Notes: generated by a model from the letters alone, not told the origin. A DNA stretch of 64,000 bases from a virus (IMGVR_UViG_3300035042_000139), one strand, 5' to 3'. Shown: positions 5,934 through 35,203, counted from the first letter of the stretch. Program-made: numbers and translations.

Positions 5934-7034
5934 ATGACAGGAAAAGACAAAGGTATGATGGGGCTTATAGCATTTTTGGTGATTGTGTTTATTGCAGGTG
6001 TAGGATTTTTTATGGTAACGGATAATATCGAGCCAGGGTTTGTTGGCTATGTTTATGACCGTACCATTGACCCTGATAATCCAGATGAAAATAGTGTACC
6101 TGTATTAGAGGGTACATCAGTAATCAACCAGCCAAGGTATGGACTTGTTTGGCTTAATCCTTTTACTCAAGAAATGTATATCTCACCAACAACTATTATC
6201 AGCAGAAACTGGACTAAAAATGAGCAGGAAGGCTCAAAACAGGATGACTCAATTGAGGCAGGAACAATTGAGGGCAAGAATGTAATTACTGATATTTATA
6301 TGTCAGTTCAGCCAGAAAATGTAGCTAAGATTATTAAAAATTGGGGCGTCAAAAAAGACTTCGAGACTATTGTAGATGATGAGCTTTACGGAGTTATGAA
6401 GGGCGAGGTTAAAAAGGTAACAAGAAAAACTTCAGTCTATAACTTCCAGGCCAAGGTTAGTGAAATGCAGACAGAAATCTTTGAGAACTTAAAAGAAACA
6501 ATGTCTGATAAGTATGGCATTAGATTAATCAGGTTTGAATTTGGAAACATATTAGTGCCAGAGGAAATTCAGGCTGAGATTAACCGAAAAACATCAGCTA
6601 TTAATGAGGTAGAACTTGCTGAGCTGGATGCTAAAAGACAGGCTGAGGTTAACGCTAAAGAGGTAGCAAGACAGGAAGCTGAGTCAAAGCAGGAGCTTAT
6701 TCAAAGACAGGCAGCTGCTGATGCTGATGCTTATGAGAAGGAAAGAAAAGCAGATGCAGAAGCTTACTCTATTGAAAGAAAGGCAGAGGCTATTAAGATG
6801 GCAGCTAACAATAAATATGAAGCAGCTATTTTAGAAAAGAAAGCAGAGTTAGAAAAACAGCAGGCTTATACAGATGTGTATTTTGCTAACAGAGAGCTTG
6901 ACCTGCAGACTAAAGCTGTTACAAGCATCAATGATAAGATGAAGATTATTGTTACTCCAGAAGACGGCAGTGGTATAGGTTCAATGCCCGGTATCATGGG
7001 TATCTTAAATGAAATCAGCGGGGCGATGGAATAA
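5934..7034 (+). CDS. SPFH / Band-7 (flotillin/HflK-like) membrane-scaffold protein.
   Basis: N-terminal TM helix (GLIAFLVIVFIAGVGFFMV), SPFH-like core, and a long Ala/Glu/Lys-rich coiled coil ('EVELAELDAKRQAEVNAKEVARQEAESKQELIQRQAAADADAYEKERKADAEAY...') typical of flotillin and HflK/C. Confidence 0.65.
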   Translation: MTGKDKGMMGLIAFLVIVFIAGVGFFMVTDNIEPGFVGYVYDRTIDPDNPDENSVPVLEGTSVINQPRYGLVWLNPFTQEMYISPTTIISRNWTKNEQEGSKQDDSIEAGTIEGKNVITDIYMSVQPENVAKIIKNWGVKKDFETIVDDELYGVMKGEVKKVTRKTSVYNFQAKVSEMQTEIFENLKETMSDKYGIRLIRFEFGNILVPEEIQAEINRKTSAINEVELAELDAKRQAEVNAKEVARQEAESKQELIQRQAAADADAYEKERKADAEAYSIERKAEAIKMAANNKYEAAILEKKAELEKQQAYTDVYFANRELDLQTKAVTSINDKMKIIVTPEDGSGIGSMPGIMGILNEISGAME

Positions 7035-7525: not shown

Positions 7526-7642
7526 CTTCTTATATAGGTTTACTTAAACAACAAAAGTATAGGCAGTAAATTTTTTAATCTTACATTATAGAAAATAAAA
7601 AAGCAAATTTAATTTTAAAAAGGATTGGAAGTGGTTTATTTA

Positions 7643-8338
7643 ATGACATGTGTAGTTGGATTTAAAGCAGAAAAAGAAAACAAAATATATATTGGCGCTG
7701 ACACTGTTGGCTCTACAAATTACACAAAAGAAAACAGGAAAGACGGCAAGGTATTTGCTTCAGGTGATTTCACAATAGGTTTTGCGGGTTCTTATAGAAT
7801 GGGACAGGTATTGCAGTATAAATTAGATGTTCCGGCACAGAAAGACTCTCAGACAGACCACGGCTATATGGCCACGACATTTATCGATGCAGTTAGGAGA
7901 CTTTTTGATAAAAATGGTATTATGGGTGTCGACCAGGACAACAAGGAATTTGGCGGTTTGTTTTTAGTAGCATATAAAAATGAGCTCTATAGAATCGACT
8001 ATGACTTTCAGGTTGGTATCGGAAGTGAAGACTTTACCGCTATAGGTTCCGGTGGAGAGGTAGCTTTGGGGGCTATGTACGCTTTAAATAGTTTTGATGA
8101 AGTTGGGCCTACCGAAAAGGTAACGATGTCTATTCTGGCAGCTATGGACCTCACACCCTTTGTTGGTGGAGATATAGAGATTGTAACTCATACCTATGTT
8201 GAAGAAAAAGAGATTGATAAGGTATACAAGAAACTTTCTGATATGACAGATGAGGACCTAATGGAGATTCAGGAATATCTTGATATGACTATTTGCGATA
8301 ATGACATGATGGCTCTCGGAGTTGATGAGTGTGCGTAG
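7643..8338 (+). CDS. HslV/20S-proteasome-beta-like Ntn-hydrolase peptidase (T1 family).
   Basis: With start at ATG 7643 the N-terminus is M-TCVVGFKAEKENKIYIGADTVGS, i.e. nucleophile Thr1 after Met removal, matching HslV/proteasome beta 'TT.VG.K..DGVVLAAD'. A later 'FTAIGSGGEVALGAMYAL' matches the GSGG motif. Confidence 0.55.
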   Translation: MTCVVGFKAEKENKIYIGADTVGSTNYTKENRKDGKVFASGDFTIGFAGSYRMGQVLQYKLDVPAQKDSQTDHGYMATTFIDAVRRLFDKNGIMGVDQDNKEFGGLFLVAYKNELYRIDYDFQVGIGSEDFTAIGSGGEVALGAMYALNSFDEVGPTEKVTMSILAAMDLTPFVGGDIEIVTHTYVEEKEIDKVYKKLSDMTDEDLMEIQEYLDMTICDNDMMALGVDECA

Positions 8339-9974
8339 CAAGAAGACAAAATATATATTTGTTACTGGTGGAGTGGTTTCGGGCTTAGGTAAAGGCCTTA
8401 CTGCTGCTTCACTTGGTTTTTTGCTTAAAGCTAGAGGGTTAAATATTAAGGTTCAGAAATTTGACCCCTATATCAATGTTGACCCCGGGACAATGAACCC
8501 TATAGAACATGGAGAGGTTTTTGTAACATCAGATGGGGCTGAAACTGATTTAGACCTCGGTCATTATGAAAGGTTTATCAACATTGAGCTTTCTGGTAAA
8601 AACTCAGTTTCTACAGGTCAAATATATCAGACTGTTTTAGATAATGAAAGAGAAGGAAAGTATTTAGGAAAAACAATACAGGTTATACCGCACATAACAG
8701 ACGAGATTAAAAGAAGAATGACATTACCAGAAGATAAAAATACAGATATTATTATTATTGAAGTTGGAGGAACTGTAGGAGATATTGAAAGCTATCCATT
8801 TATAGAAGCTGTAAGGCAGTTAAGACATGACTTGGGCTTTGATAATACATTCCATATTCACTGCACTTTAATACCTTATATGCATAAGGTCGGTGAATAC
8901 AAGTCAAAGCCAACACAGCAGAGTTTAAAAGAACTTAGGAGCTTGGGTGTTCAGCCAGATGCCGTTGTTGGCAGAATAAAAGGTCAGATGCCGGAAGATA
9001 TAAAAGATAAAATTTCACTCTTTGGAAATATAGATAAAAGATTAATATTTGAATCTGTAGATGTTGAGCACATATACGATATTCCTCTGAAATATGAAGA
9101 GCAGTTTATGGCTGAAAGGGTTATGAAAGGTATAGGTTTTGATTTGTCTGTACCAGATATGACTCCCGGAGTTAAGTTTAAGGATATGGATATGTGGGAA
9201 ACTATGGTCAAAAATTTAAAAGAAGAAAAAGAAAGTGTAAATATCGCTGTTGTTGGTAAATACACAGAGCTTGAAGATGCTTATCTTAGTATCAAAGAAG
9301 CTTTATATCATGCAGGTGTCGCAAACAATCTTGATGTAGAAATTGCATTTATAGATGCTGAATACTTAGAAGATTTAAGCTGTGATGAAGCAGTAAAAAT
9401 AACATTAAAAGAATATGATGGAATACTAGTTCCTGGTGGATTCGGCAAAAGAGGTATTGAGGGTAAGATAAAAGCAGCTAGGTATGCTAGAAAAAACAAT
9501 GTCCCTTACTTTGGTATCTGCCTAGGAATGCAGGTTGCAGCTATTGAGTATGCCAGAAACAAGCTTGGCCTAGAAGATGCCAACAGCTTAGAGTTTGACA
9601 GTGAAACTAAAAACCCTGTAATCACTCTCATGAATGAGCAGAAAGAAATTAATAATAAAGGTGGAACAATGAGGCTTGGCTCTTATGACTGCACTCTTGA
9701 TACTAATAGCAAGGCTTACGGAGCTTATAAAGAAGAGCATATTAGTGAAAGGCACAGACATCGCTTTGAATTTAATAATTATTTTACTGAGTTTTTTGAA
9801 AAAGGAATGATAGTTACTGGAATAAACCCGGACTTAAATCTTGCTGAAATAATTGAAATAGAGGACCACCCGTGGTTTGTTGGTGTGCAGTTTCACCCTG
9901 AGTTTAAGTCAAGGCCTTTAAGACCACATCCGTTATTTGTTGACTTTATAAAAAATGCTTCTACGAGGAGATGA
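8322..9974 (+). CDS. pyrG: CTP synthase (glutamine-hydrolysing).
   Basis: 'KYIFVTGGVVSGLGKG' N-terminal P-loop, 'DPYINVDPGTMNP', and a GATase domain with catalytic Cys in 'YFGICLGMQ' and 'HRHRFEFN'. Start overlaps the end of the HslV-like gene by about 17 nt. Confidence 0.95.
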   Translation: MMSVRSKKTKYIFVTGGVVSGLGKGLTAASLGFLLKARGLNIKVQKFDPYINVDPGTMNPIEHGEVFVTSDGAETDLDLGHYERFINIELSGKNSVSTGQIYQTVLDNEREGKYLGKTIQVIPHITDEIKRRMTLPEDKNTDIIIIEVGGTVGDIESYPFIEAVRQLRHDLGFDNTFHIHCTLIPYMHKVGEYKSKPTQQSLKELRSLGVQPDAVVGRIKGQMPEDIKDKISLFGNIDKRLIFESVDVEHIYDIPLKYEEQFMAERVMKGIGFDLSVPDMTPGVKFKDMDMWETMVKNLKEEKESVNIAVVGKYTELEDAYLSIKEALYHAGVANNLDVEIAFIDAEYLEDLSCDEAVKITLKEYDGILVPGGFGKRGIEGKIKAARYARKNNVPYFGICLGMQVAAIEYARNKLGLEDANSLEFDSETKNPVITLMNEQKEINNKGGTMRLGSYDCTLDTNSKAYGAYKEEHISERHRHRFEFNNYFTEFFEKGMIVTGINPDLNLAEIIEIEDHPWFVGVQFHPEFKSRPLRPHPLFVDFIKNASTRR

Positions 9975-11180: not shown

Positions 11181-11912
11181 ATGGAAGATTACTTAAAAAG
11201 ATTTACAGAGCCTATTGTTATAAAGTCGCAAAAAGCAGCTGATAGGTTTTATGAACTTTTAGAAGAAGCTGAAAATCATAAATCTACACCAGAAGAAATA
11301 AATAAAAGAAAAACAAACATAAAGAAAACAATGGAAGAAATTGAAAGAGGAAAAAGGATAATTGAGTCAATCTTGGGTGTTAAAAATCTATATCTGATTG
11401 CTGACACCCATTTTGGCCATTATAACATTATAGAATATGAGAACAGACCTTTTTTAACAGCAGAAGAGATGGATGAATACATGATTGAAATGTGGAATGA
11501 TACTGTTTGTCCACATGACACAGTGCTTCATCTAGGAGATTTCTTTCTTACTAACACCAAACGACAGCTTGAGATTATGGACCGTTTAAACGGCAAAATT
11601 ATACTCATTAGAGGTAATCACGACGGTCAATCACGAACAAAACTCGTTGAGAGGCTTGGGTTTAAAGAAGTATATGACAGTTTTACCTTGATGGTTGATG
11701 ATTACACTTTCGTTTTAACTCACAGACCAATGGAATTGAGTATAGAAGATGAGCTTTATTTTAAGTCACACAACATAATTAACATTCACGGACATGTTCA
11801 TGGTGTTAAGGAAGAGAAATCTAAGTTTCACAAATGTGTTTCAGCAGAAAATTTATTATTAAAACCTATAAACTTAAAAAGACTAATAAAATTTATAGAG
11901 AATGAAAGGTGA
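11181..11912 (+). CDS. Calcineurin-like metallophosphoesterase.
   Basis: Motifs 'IADTHFGH', 'LHLGDFF', 'IRGNHDG', 'LTHRP', 'GHVHG' are the canonical MPE motifs I-V. Confidence 0.75.
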   Translation: MEDYLKRFTEPIVIKSQKAADRFYELLEEAENHKSTPEEINKRKTNIKKTMEEIERGKRIIESILGVKNLYLIADTHFGHYNIIEYENRPFLTAEEMDEYMIEMWNDTVCPHDTVLHLGDFFLTNTKRQLEIMDRLNGKIILIRGNHDGQSRTKLVERLGFKEVYDSFTLMVDDYTFVLTHRPMELSIEDELYFKSHNIINIHGHVHGVKEEKSKFHKCVSAENLLLKPINLKRLIKFIENER

Positions 11913-15931: not shown

Positions 15932-16169
15932 AAAAGGAGACATTGTCTATCACAAAGGACTGCTCGAACGCCGTGGAATCAATAACAATTGTGAGTTTAA
16001 AGTTAATAAGGTAGAAAATGATAAGGCTGAAGTTGAGGTAGTTGTCCCTGCCGAGGACCCTTTCGATAGAGTCGGTATGAAATGGACTAAAATACCAATT
16101 GAAAATCTAATTAAAGTTAGAGATTATAACCAGAGTGAAGTTAAAGAGTTTGATATGGGGGGATTTTAA
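15915..16169 (+). CDS. Hypothetical protein.
   Basis: 84-aa ORF. Confidence 0.3.
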   Translation: MMMMIKKGDIVYHKGLLERRGINNNCEFKVNKVENDKAEVEVVVPAEDPFDRVGMKWTKIPIENLIKVRDYNQSEVKEFDMGGF

Positions 16170-16507
16170 TGAGTGAAATGGTACATTTTAAGGGTCAGTT
16201 AGTGCCTTTGACAAGGCCTGAAGGTATGACACTTGAAGAACAAATGAAAGATGTAGCTGGTATTACAGAGGTTAAAAGCTATTATGACAGCTTAGAAGAA
16301 CAGTTTTTGGAAGCTGCTTACAAGAAGTTTGCTGTTATCGATGATACTATCTACCGGATTGAAATGGAAGATGTTTATTATGATGATATCTTTGAATCTA
16401 ATTTTAACGATGACGGAACTATAAGCTTTGAAACAAAGTATTATAATGGTGGCTGCTCTTTTTATGAGGCTTTAGGTTATGCCCTGAAGAGTGATAATAA
16501 TGCCTAG
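16169..16507 (+). CDS. Hypothetical protein.
   Basis: 112-aa acidic ORF. Confidence 0.35.
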   Translation: MSEMVHFKGQLVPLTRPEGMTLEEQMKDVAGITEVKSYYDSLEEQFLEAAYKKFAVIDDTIYRIEMEDVYYDDIFESNFNDDGTISFETKYYNGGCSFYEALGYALKSDNNA

Positions 16508-16578
16508 AGCTTATTGCGATGCATCTGATTGCGAATATCATGATTTAGGCGAATGCTGGACAGATGAAGTTTTTTTAG

Positions 16579-16998
16579 ATGAGAAGGGTAAATGCAGAAA
16601 CTATAAAAAAGAGGATGATGACAACAATGAGTAAGGAGCTTCTATTTTCTGTAACTAAAAACGATTTAGAAATTGAGACATTCCGCTCTGGTGGCCCGGG
16701 CGGACAAAACCAAAACTCACGAGAAACTGGTGTCAGAATTAGACATAAAGAGTCAGGGGCTGTGGCCGAGTCAAGAAACCACAGGACTCAGGCTAAGAAT
16801 AAAAAGGCTGCACTTGAAAGACTTGTAAAGACAGATGAATTTAAAAAATGGCATAAGCTTAAAACAAGTTATGCTCTAAAGGGTGTTGATGACTATAAAA
16901 AACAAATAGAAAAAGAAGTTGATGCATGGATGAGTGATAGGAATTTAAAAATAGAAAGTTTTAATGAAGATACTAAGCAATGGGAGGAATTAAATTAA
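16579..16998 (+). CDS. RF-1 domain (GGQ) peptidyl-tRNA hydrolase, ArfB/ICT1-like ribosome-rescue factor family.
   Basis: 'FRSGGPGGQNQNSRETGVRIRHKESG' is the canonical GGQ motif and context. Size of about 125-139 aa equals ArfB. Likely start at ATG 16618 or 16630 (MMTTMSKE...). A Cys-rich micro-ORF lies at 16500..16634 in another frame. Confidence 0.65.
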   Translation: MRRVNAETIKKRMMTTMSKELLFSVTKNDLEIETFRSGGPGGQNQNSRETGVRIRHKESGAVAESRNHRTQAKNKKAALERLVKTDEFKKWHKLKTSYALKGVDDYKKQIEKEVDAWMSDRNLKIESFNEDTKQWEELN

Positions 16999-17297: not shown

Positions 17298-17335
17298 AAA
17301 AAGAAGCCGTCCATTTAAGGGCGGCTTTTATTGTT
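17296..17335. terminator. Bidirectional rho-independent terminator at the convergence point of the + and - strand modules.
   Basis: A-run 17296-17302, AAGCCGTCC (17304-17312), loop, GGGCGGCTT (17319-17327), then TTTTA. Confidence 0.7.
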
Positions 17336-33933: not shown

Positions 33934-34074
33934 ATGGAACGAACACAAGTCTCTTTACCTAAATATCTTAGAGATAAACTAGATGAAGAAGGAAACAAAA
34001 AAGGCATAGGCATTTCAGAAATGGTTCGCTATATTTTATTTCAATACTATGAAGAAAGTGATAACAATGAGTAA
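33934..34074 (+). CDS. Small ribbon-helix-helix-like protein (46 aa) inside the IS element.
   Basis: RBS GAGGTGA 33922-33928. MERTQVSLPKYLRDKLDEEGNKKGIGISEMVRYILFQYYEE... has a beta-strand plus two helices of CopG/RHH type. Overlaps the tnpB start. Confidence 0.35.
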   Translation: MERTQVSLPKYLRDKLDEEGNKKGIGISEMVRYILFQYYEESDNNE

Positions 34075-35203
34075 ATCACATATCACACTACACCACATTA
34101 AATTATTTGAACCTACAAATATTAAACGTAATGAACTAAAAAAGCTTTCTCGTAACTGGAACAAAGCTATTCGTTCAGCCCTCAAAATAATTAAACACTG
34201 GGGGCTTACTGCTTACACTAAATCACATAAGCATGTATATAGAGTTGTTAAGAATAATTACAACCTCCCTTCACAGGTAGCTATTGAAGCTAATCGTAAA
34301 GCTATGGAATCTTATAAGTCTTGTCATAAAAAGTTTAGAGATAACGTTAAGTTTAACTATCAAGTACCTGTTGATTTAGTTAAGAATAAAAGTTTTAAAC
34401 TTATAAGAAAAGATAACGGTACTAATATTATAAAGATAAGCATTGAGCCTTATAACAATATCTACGTACCTATCTCTTTAAGCAACTACCACTTAAATTA
34501 TATTAATAATGATAGGTACGAGATTAAAACAGCTGAGCTATATAAACAAGATGGTGAATGGTATCTTAATTTTATACTAAGATACGAAGTGAAAGGAAAA
34601 GAAACAGACACTCATCTTGGTGTTGACCTTGGTATTATTAATCTAGCTACGTTTAGTGTAGTAGACAGCAGTGAAAATATTTTGCATACTGAACACCTAT
34701 CAGGTAAAGAGTTAAGGTTTAAACGTATGAGATATAAAAGTAAACGTAAGCGTAAAGCTTTTAAGTCTGATAGTAAGAATACTTCACTGATTAAAGAAAA
34801 CAGAATTACTAAAGAAACTAACTGGCTTATAACTAATAGAATTATTGAGATAGCTAAAGAATATAATTCTACTATTGTATTTGAAAACCTTAAGAATATT
34901 AGAAAGAATATTACTAACGATAACAATCTAAACAACTATGAGAAAAATAGTTGGGCTTACTATCAATTAAAACAGTTTGTAAAACATAAAGCTAATCTTA
35001 ATAACTTACCTGTTGAAGAAGTTAATCCTTACAAAACATCTAAGATATGCCACGTATGTGGACAAGAAGGCATAAGAGAAACACAAAACTTGTTTGAATG
35101 TACTAATGGTCACACTTTTAATGCTGATACTAATGCCAGTATAAATATAGCTAAACTTGCTATGGGTATTGAGATAGAAAATCCTTTTGTCGATGTAGCA
35201 TAG
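34049..35203 (+). CDS. tnpB: TnpB (IS605 OrfB / IS1341-type RNA-guided RuvC-like nuclease).
   Basis: RuvC-I 'HLGVDLGIINLA', RuvC-II 'TIVFENLKNI', zinc finger 'CHVCGQ...CTNGH', RuvC-III 'NADTNASINIAK'. Likely start at ATG 34067 (MSKSHITL). Confidence 0.8.
   Translation: MKKVITMSKSHITLHHIKLFEPTNIKRNELKKLSRNWNKAIRSALKIIKHWGLTAYTKSHKHVYRVVKNNYNLPSQVAIEANRKAMESYKSCHKKFRDNVKFNYQVPVDLVKNKSFKLIRKDNGTNIIKISIEPYNNIYVPISLSNYHLNYINNDRYEIKTAELYKQDGEWYLNFILRYEVKGKETDTHLGVDLGIINLATFSVVDSSENILHTEHLSGKELRFKRMRYKSKRKRKAFKSDSKNTSLIKENRITKETNWLITNRIIEIAKEYNSTIVFENLKNIRKNITNDNNLNNYEKNSWAYYQLKQFVKHKANLNNLPVEEVNPYKTSKICHVCGQEGIRETQNLFECTNGHTFNADTNASINIAKLAMGIEIENPFVDVA

Follow-up and report, generated by a model that had tools for sequence, protein, structure and literature searches.

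What kind of protein does a phage make from a short gene that carries the GGQ loop of peptide chain release factors and no codon-reading domain, and what could such a protein do during infection? The question is raised by a gene in the window, a stretch of 64,000 nucleotides of viral DNA (IMGVR_UViG_3300035042_000139) analysed here. An earlier note had read the gene as encoding a phage-borne, ArfB-like ribosome-rescue factor of 125-139 aa, overlapped at its 5' end by a Cys-rich micro-ORF.

Table 1. Positions of the features at the GGQ locus, counted from the first nucleotide of the window.
Feature	Position	Strand	Basis
112-aa gene, phrog_6035, function unknown	16169..16507	+	Profile match; syntenic in L083-L086 and L089
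44-aa four-Cys gene ('micro-ORF'), MPRAYCDASDCEYHDLGECWTDEVFLDEKGKCRNYKKEDDDNNE	16500..16634	+	Homologues in L083, L084, L086
Shine-Dalgarno-like AGAGGA, 11 nt upstream of ATG 16627	16610..16615	+	Read from sequence
Stand-alone GGQ (RF-1 domain) protein gene, predicted 123 aa	16627..16998, stop included	+	PF00472, phrog_3122, family alignment, LLFS position
GGPGGQNQN catalytic loop, residues 22-30	16690..16716	+	Sequence; invariant residues
Family-specific C-terminal module (predicted), residues 66-123	16822..16995	+	AlphaFold model; profile search; charge
Thioredoxin gene, 99 aa	16998..17297	+	Pfam Thioredoxin E 3.2e-22; arrangement shared with L084, L089
Terminator-like hairpin, 11 pairs then T run	17302..17329	+	Ends the + strand block

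The gene, its start and its neighbours

The GGQ reading frame lies on the + strand, where it is closed upstream by a TAG at 16576-16578 and is open from an ATG at 16579 to the TAA at 16996-16998; further in-frame ATG codons occur at 16615, 16618 and 16627. We place the start of the gene at 16627, with a predicted product of 123 aa rather than the 139 aa of the longest ORF, because of the conserved N-terminus of the family, the AGAGGA site and the junction found in a close relative. The conserved N-terminus, taken from an alignment of 43 homologues, is M-[SK]-K-E-L-L-F-S. The (L)LFS motif was detected in 116 of the 120 best homologues, whose median length is 119.5 aa; it stands no more than 10 residues from the called N-terminus in 112 of these 116 proteins, and 3-9 residues from it in 100 of them. 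The close relative is L083, whose GGQ protein is 85% identical to that of the window. Its junction GAGGATGATAATGAGTAA is the same, but the gene upstream is a different one of 107 aa, and the N-terminal extension of the 139-aa reading is absent. The junction GAGGATGAT(A/GAC)A..ATGAGTAA is conserved in both L083 and L085. The ORF and the GGPGGQNQN motif described in the earlier note are thus as claimed, and the length has to be corrected to 123 aa. As for the candidate starts it had offered, 16579 and 16618 are indeed in-frame ATG codons, 16630 is not, and the start that we assign is 16627.

With this start, the stop of the upstream 44-aa gene overlaps the GGQ gene by 8 nt (ATGAGTAA) and not by the ~56 nt that the earlier reading implied; the micro-ORF itself exists at the place given for it, and the large overlap falls away. 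To judge by its homologues, the 44-aa ORF is a real conserved gene and a normal phage neighbour, and junctions like its 8-nt overlap with the GGQ gene are ordinary in phages. L083, L084 and L086 encode a 43-aa homologue (MSKFCNFKNCKYSSLGECMCDDIFINENGMCV...) with the identical four-Cys pattern, and there the 107-aa gene intervenes between it and the RF-1 gene; the gene arrangement in L085 and L089 is that of the window. The 44-aa protein compares with DUF1540 below threshold (15.3 bits against a Pfam cut-off of 22.1, E 0.021), its homologues gave no Pfam match, and a database search of 5.8 billion proteins recovered only 3 clusters.

In a long block of co-directional genes devoted to replication and nucleotide metabolism, which overlap at their junctions, the GGQ gene is the last but one. 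The thioredoxin start overlaps the GGQ stop (TAATG), and beyond the terminator-like hairpin a convergent block of virion genes occupies the - strand. Virion and tail proteins, RecJ, a DnaD-like loader, CTP synthase and an HslV-like peptidase are encoded in the window, and window proteins are distantly related to those of the jumbo phages 0305phi8-36 (Bacillus) and MTATph1 (Moorella), all of which agrees with the phage origin proposed earlier. The window has a GC content of 32-35%. A syntenic copy, 95% identical, was found on a 203.6-kb IMG/VR contig, evidently a jumbo phage of the window's kind; no near-identical DNA was found in INPHARED. We infer a Firmicute host. The window uses the standard code, with table 11 giving open frames as long as 1542 aa. 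No tRNA, tmRNA or Rfam family was found across the 64-kb window, and neither RtcB (sought by tblastn with a phage RtcB query) nor Pth was found in it. The window also encodes a metallophosphoesterase homologue (11181..11912, E 6e-19).

The catalytic domain and the C-terminal module

The catalytic domain looks intact and appears to be of the RF1/RF2/PrfH subtype rather than of the ArfB/ICT1 subtype, as indicated by family and PDB matches and by the conserved residues of RF domain 3. The Pfam RF-1 model (PF00472) matches residues 7-69 with 67.3 bits (gathering cut-off 35, E 1.4e-18), and phrog_3122, 'RF-1 domain peptide chain release factor', aligns its positions 19-126 of 136 with residues 1-117 (E 2.9e-25). 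Residues G23, G25, G26, Q27, N30, R37, H40, S43, A45, N58, A62, F72 and W75 are invariant in the 43 aligned homologues, those through A62 matching conserved positions of RF domain 3, and the GGQ itself is kept in 119 of 120 homologues. The catalytic loop and its flanks are under purifying selection; a loss of conserved residues around the GGQ, named in the earlier note as a finding that would refute its reading, is absent from the alignment.

The assignment to a subtype follows from the ranking of the NCBIfam models, in which prfB, prfA and prfH stand above ArfB, all of them far under their own cut-offs. The RF1/RF2 models score 50-62 bits against cut-offs of 370-423 and are matched only at model positions ~209-282, and the PrfH model (TIGR03072) scores 51 bits against 166.65, with residues 9-69 aligned to model positions 103-163 only. 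The ArfB model (NF006718), whose cut-off is 100 bits, reaches 36.4 bits and aligns with no more than residues 8-40. The best matches in sequence and fold are domain 3 of RF1, RF2, mtRF1 and PrfH (Table 2). The label 'ArfB-like' given to the protein in the earlier note is not sustained, as RF1/RF2 and PrfH are closer and the basic tail is absent.

Table 2. Comparison with solved structures (PDB E-values; the second column of figures is from the family profile).
Factor	PDB E-value	PDB E-value, family profile	Structure match
RF1/RF2	1e-9	5e-17 (positions 9-88)	8.8 (mtRF1)
PrfH	2.5e-6	2.4e-13	7.5
C12orf65	1.8e-4	1e-10	6.5
ArfB	5e-3	5e-6 (positions 13-39)	5.3

An AlphaFold model built from the family alignment (mean pLDDT 89.4) predicts a strand at residues 14-19, the GGQ loop, strands at 35-40 and 46-49, and helices at 55-67 and 70-84, which jointly align with alpha7 of RF2. 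The C-terminal end of the model consists of a helix at 90-101 and a hairpin of strands 110-113 and 118-121. The C-terminal module of ~55 aa would accordingly take in the last part of the alpha7-like helix, together with one more helix and a beta-hairpin. Within it F72, W75 and E110 are invariant and M102 and N106 nearly so. Residues 66-123 have a net charge of -1 here and of +0.3 on average over 43 homologues, which bears out the earlier remark that the tail is not the typical basic tail of ArfB.

The C-terminal profile was compared with 1.84 billion representative proteins, of which it found 440. All of the 150 matches listed are at most 175 aa long, and the 11 inspected are members of the family or fragments of members. 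The profile search showed no fusion of the module to other domains except rare Cys-rich extensions, which occur in 3 of 140 full-length members (P0218, P0226 and P0152). In the PDB the module had no real match, the only hits being spurious ones to TPR repeats. As far as profiles can tell, the module is specific to this GGQ family.

Distribution and genomic context of the family

The family is mainly phage-borne, widespread and already annotated, and the gene of the window is a further member. Searches with tblastn returned 242 phage records, of which 206 are Mycobacterium phages (coverage of at least 80%), in which the protein bears the name 'RF-1 peptide chain release factor'. In IMG/VR, 289 contigs carry a relative, and many of these contigs measure 100-460 kb; in the protein database, 447 homologous clusters of ~110-130 aa represent metagenomic homologues. 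Cellular genomes contribute little: among 185,579 species genomes there are only ~20 full-length copies, scattered across phyla, and the sole one inspected (L004, Brevibacillus) looks like part of a prophage, with a serine recombinase nearby. A cellular paralogue in Planctomycetes was considered and rejected, the genome-contig hits being ordinary RF2 genes. BFVD contains further small phage GGQ proteins of 64-194 aa.

We found no functional or experimental study of any family member in the literature. Apart from showing that the family reaches into a low-GC jumbo phage, the copy in the window has little to add. Taken together, by contrast, the family lends itself well to experiments: it is abundant and occurs in more than 200 genetically tractable mycobacteriophages, so that its function is directly testable.

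The surroundings of the gene were compared across 105 loci by clustering same-strand ORFs within 4 kb. No conserved partner gene emerged, since no family of neighbours occurs at more than 11 loci; the commonest are a DnaB-like helicase (11 loci), a metallophosphoesterase (10) and a dUTPase (7). This suggests that the GGQ protein acts alone or with host factors. Raw counts place a tRNA within 10 kb of the GGQ gene at 28 of the 105 loci and within 1 kb at 17. Nine of the 105 loci, from about seven independent lineages, have a same-strand tRNA within 40 nt, a figure that is likewise a raw count. RtcB occurs within 10 kb at 3 of 80 IMG/VR loci, and tmRNA at one.

Part of the family is thus linked to tRNA arrays. 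In Mycobacterium phage prophiT49-2 the GGQ gene lies within an array of tmRNA and 24 tRNAs, and RtcB and a peptidyl-tRNA hydrolase gene follow it. A published survey has described one class of mycobacterial tRNA arrays in which a CDS with an RF-1 domain is the core gene, with the suggestion that it provides extra rescue capacity (PMC5966550). Iyer et al. interpret the tRNAs, RtcB, Rnl ligases and PTH2 of jumbo phages as means of RNA repair and ribosome rescue against host attack on translation and make no mention of GGQ proteins (PMC7824862). The position of relatives inside tRNA arrays with tmRNA, RtcB and Pth indirectly supports a role in the rescue of ribosomes or tRNAs, and a rescue or counter-defence role, the benefit suggested in the earlier note, is plausible. 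Because the window has no tRNA, tmRNA, RtcB or Pth, this contextual argument rests on relatives with 42-57% identity. Counting against rescue is the setting of the gene in the cluster C mycobacteriophage Tonenili, where it stands between DnaE (DNA polymerase III alpha) and RecA, and the fact that the commonest neighbours are replication genes.

Possible function and known counterparts

On the evidence above we favour, as the probable function, that of a minimal codon-independent release factor, which would hydrolyse peptidyl-tRNA on stalled complexes and recycle ribosomes and tRNAs during infection. The protein, translated from its own start at 16627, would place its RF1/RF2-type GGQ domain in the peptidyl-transferase centre and there hydrolyse peptidyl-tRNA. 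In place of domains 2 and 4 of release factors, or of the ArfB tail, binding or the selection of substrates would fall to the alpha7-like helix and the C-terminal module. Candidate substrates are 70S ribosomes whose A site is vacant or damaged, or 50S subunits that have kept their peptidyl-tRNA. Ribosomes and tRNAs would thereby be regained for the pool during infection, for example after host nucleases, or the shut-off of the host that the phage itself imposes, have cut mRNA or tRNA.

In ArfB, ribosome binding was lost when the basic tail was shortened by 10 residues (reviewed in PMC8012679), which suggests that a GGQ domain needs a separate targeting element. The neutral C-terminal module of the phage family is a putative element of this kind, and the ArfB case is a point against the proposal.

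A bolder proposal, which we put forward tentatively as one possibility, is that the family represents a fourth GGQ architecture beside RF1/RF2, PrfH and ArfB. Its C-terminal module would be a sensor of its own for stalls that are otherwise poorly handled, and large phages would carry it with tRNA arrays against immunity that targets tRNA or mRNA. The state sensed might be, for instance, a ribosome whose A site is empty after tRNA cleavage, or a 50S subunit that kept its peptidyl-tRNA on splitting, and the gene, often carried together with tRNA arrays, tmRNA, RtcB and Pth, would help to sustain translation. The survey of bacterial release-factor hydrolases by Burroughs and Aravind covers RF1/RF2, ArfB and PrfH and not this architecture (PMC6514570). 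The same survey reports that ArfB is missing entirely from Firmicutes, so that in a Firmicute host, if such is the host here, the phage would supply a missing function.

If active, the protein would have the smallest architecture known to deliver a GGQ domain of the bacterial type to the ribosome with neither a codon reader nor a tail in the mRNA channel. The target of its 55-residue C-terminal module could then point to a new way of distinguishing stalled from working ribosomes. An active protein would further extend, by a protein component, the set of tRNAs, tmRNA, RNA ligases and Pth2 with which phages are believed to ward off host nucleases directed at the translation apparatus.

Several other functions have to be weighed against release on stalled complexes by a stand-alone factor. 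The protein might act only after the splitting of ribosomes, on 50S subunits that retain peptidyl-tRNA, as mtRF-R (C12orf65) does together with MTRES1, or as in the release step of bacterial RQC; a sensor of the small subunit would then be unnecessary. The long alignment with C12orf65 is nevertheless due to the GGQ domain, as the C-terminal profile by itself finds nothing in the PDB. Moreover, mtRF-R needs its partner MTRES1, whereas the 105 loci share no partner gene, and no RqcH, RqcP or Hsp15-like genes were noticed nearby. We regard action confined to split subunits as unlikely.

The 44-aa protein could instead form one half of a two-part factor, either as an adaptor, in the way that ArfA or BrfA serves RF2, or fused to the GGQ protein by frameshifting. 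The coupling of both genes by the 8-nt overlap would suit such a pairing, as would the rare fused Cys-rich extensions of other members and the 50%-identical relative L005, which encodes a similar 43-aa Cys protein directly upstream of its GGQ gene; L116 gave a partial match. However, the motif that retrieved L005 and L116 was composed after these cases were known, and an unbiased HMM detects L005 only at E 2.7. The apparent enrichment of the C-x4-C...G-x-C motif directly upstream of GGQ genes likewise refers to a pattern composed post hoc, and a crude count of upstream ORFs with at least 4 Cys (28 of 100 loci) is not above the per-ORF background of 18%. The Cys-rich extensions are confined to the three members named above, the small protein to its 3 clusters, and in relatives 85% identical to the window the 107-aa gene separates the two genes. 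Since the TAG at 16576-16578 closes the GGQ frame, the two products could be fused only through a +1 shift between 16579 and 16634. No plausible +1 site was found in that interval, and the heptamer T TTT TTA (16571-16577) was rejected as a shift site, since a -1 shift leads into the wrong frame. A two-part factor is for these reasons improbable.

For a true factor of the ArfB/ICT1 type, the C-terminal part would thread into the mRNA entry channel, which is empty in non-stop ribosomes, and so license the GGQ domain. The protein does equal ArfB in size, it carries a stand-alone GGQ near the N-terminus (residues 25-27) as ArfB does, and weak ArfB matches exist. These matches stop short of the tail, with the ArfB model spanning residues 8-40 and ArfB chains aligning to the family profile at positions 13-39 only, while RF1, RF2 and PrfH are much closer. 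The tail that ArfB requires is unstructured and strongly basic (PMC8012679); the C-terminal part here is predicted to be folded into two helices and a hairpin (pLDDT ~85-90) and is about neutral in the family. We consider an ArfB-type mechanism very improbable.

Least credible is a modulator or decoy that occupies the A site or the peptidyl-transferase centre to bring about host shut-off, block tmRNA tagging or interfere with release factors, which could matter in phages that reassign stop codons: the usual neighbours are early and replication genes, and L090 and L091 (anticodon CUA) and L108 (UUA) have suppressor tRNAs at a distance of 1-4 kb from it, but these are only 3 of 105 loci, the window uses the standard code, and the near-absolute conservation of the GGQ and its flanks is what is expected of an active hydrolase.

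The favoured reading, a codon-independent release factor, can be set beside the known systems, beginning with ArfB (YaeJ)/ICT1. ArfB, too, is a stand-alone GGQ protein of similar length that does not need a stop codon. The GGQ domain is of a different subtype, with only ~30 residues around the loop alignable, and the flexible linker and basic tail of ArfB both appear to be absent from the predicted structure of the window protein. C12orf65/mtRF-R also combines a GGQ domain of the RF1/RF2 type with a short C-terminal helical extension, and the profile alignment runs nearly from end to end (E 1e-10); the C-terminal parts are not detectably homologous, and C12orf65 is a mitochondrial protein that acts with MTRES1 on split large subunits. 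PrfH, a release factor for damaged ribosomes, keeps a module resembling domains 2 and 4, which the window protein lacks, and is linked to RtcB, which is not found in the 64 kb of the window.

For residues 8-88 the closest counterpart is domain 3 of RF1/RF2 (with mtRF1 and mtRF1a), with which the GGQ loop, three strands and alpha7 are shared; N30, R37, H40 and N58 of the window protein correspond to RF1 residues in the alignment. The loop reads GGQNQN in the window protein and GGQHVN in RF1/RF2. Domains 1, 2 and 4 and the PxT/SPF codon-reading motif are missing, so that the protein should neither read stop codons nor interact with RF3.

The closest known counterparts over the whole length are the mycobacteriophage members of PHROG 3122, the 'RF-1 (domain) peptide chain release factor' of SEA-PHAGES (among them Tonenili gp155 and Alice gp197 of cluster C, and prophiT49-2 gp135), with 42-48% identity over 89-98% of the protein. 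They differ in host range and lineage, the phage of the window being a low-GC jumbo phage, and its gene lies outside a tRNA array and does not adjoin DnaE or RecA. Like the window protein they are phage-borne, and they have its size, its GGQ loop and its C-terminal module in common.

The junction upstream of the GGQ gene

The gene directly upstream of the GGQ gene differs between the window, where it is the 44-aa four-Cys micro-ORF, and L083, a relative with an 85%-identical GGQ protein, where it encodes 107 aa. The 3' ends of these two different genes are nevertheless near-identical: ...EDDDNNE* in the window (16620..16634) versus ...FEDDNE* in L083 (2325..2342), and both overlap the conserved ribosome-binding site and the start of the GGQ gene. 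This suggests that the 107-aa gene was deleted or inserted with the junction preserved.

A T TTT TTA heptamer also occurs within the micro-ORF, and its register is that of a classic slippery site for -1 frameshifting. Slippage by -1 at this site would not lead into the GGQ frame, which has a TAG at 16576-16578; the heptamer is therefore probably coincidental.

Features of the window and of related loci
Feature	Location	Strand	Details
T TTT TTA heptamer	window 16571..16577	+	inside the micro-ORF
SPFH/Band 7 protein	window 5934..7034	+	
HslV-like peptidase	window 7625..8338	+	
CTP synthase PyrG	window 8322..9974	+	full-length; Pfam CTP_synth_N, E 4e-116
Calcineurin-like metallophosphoesterase	window 11181..11912	+	Pfam Metallophos_2, phrog_547
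Transposase	window 34049..35203	+	384 aa; phrog_506, E 1.2e-34
Suppressor tRNA	L090 8982..9059		anticodon CUA
Suppressor tRNA	L091 10549..10627		anticodon CUA
Suppressor tRNA	L108 5917..5991		anticodon UUA

Other genes of the window and rare forms of the GGQ protein

The transposase gene sits within a block of virion genes on the - strand, in the opposite orientation, and looks like an insertion sequence inside the structural module. Within the GGQ family, Cys-rich, zinc-ribbon-like extensions occur at the N- or C-terminus of rare members (proteins P0218, P0226, P0225 and P0152); the C-terminal end of P0226 reads ...YHCDGCTQ...FCPTCQQ.

Translation and possible RNA repair genes near GGQ genes

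The metallophosphoesterase of the window matches, with 32% identity and an E-value of 6e-19, a family that recurs near the GGQ genes of relatives, being found on the same strand and less than 4 kb away in 10 of the 105 loci compared. Among the loci bearing it are some of the tRNA-array and RtcB loci, for example L088, L102, L104, L121 and L160. The enzyme could be an RNA-end-healing one tied to the same process as the GGQ gene.

Three relatives carry suppressor tRNAs at a distance of 1-4 kb from the GGQ gene, which hints at stop-codon reassignment in some carriers of the family. The clearest 'translation repair' island with a GGQ-family member is that of Mycobacterium phage prophiT49-2 (L088, 1..7215), where a single uninterrupted cluster, all of it on one strand, brings together a tmRNA, 24 tRNAs, the RF-1-domain gene, an RtcB-like ligase and a peptidyl-tRNA hydrolase.
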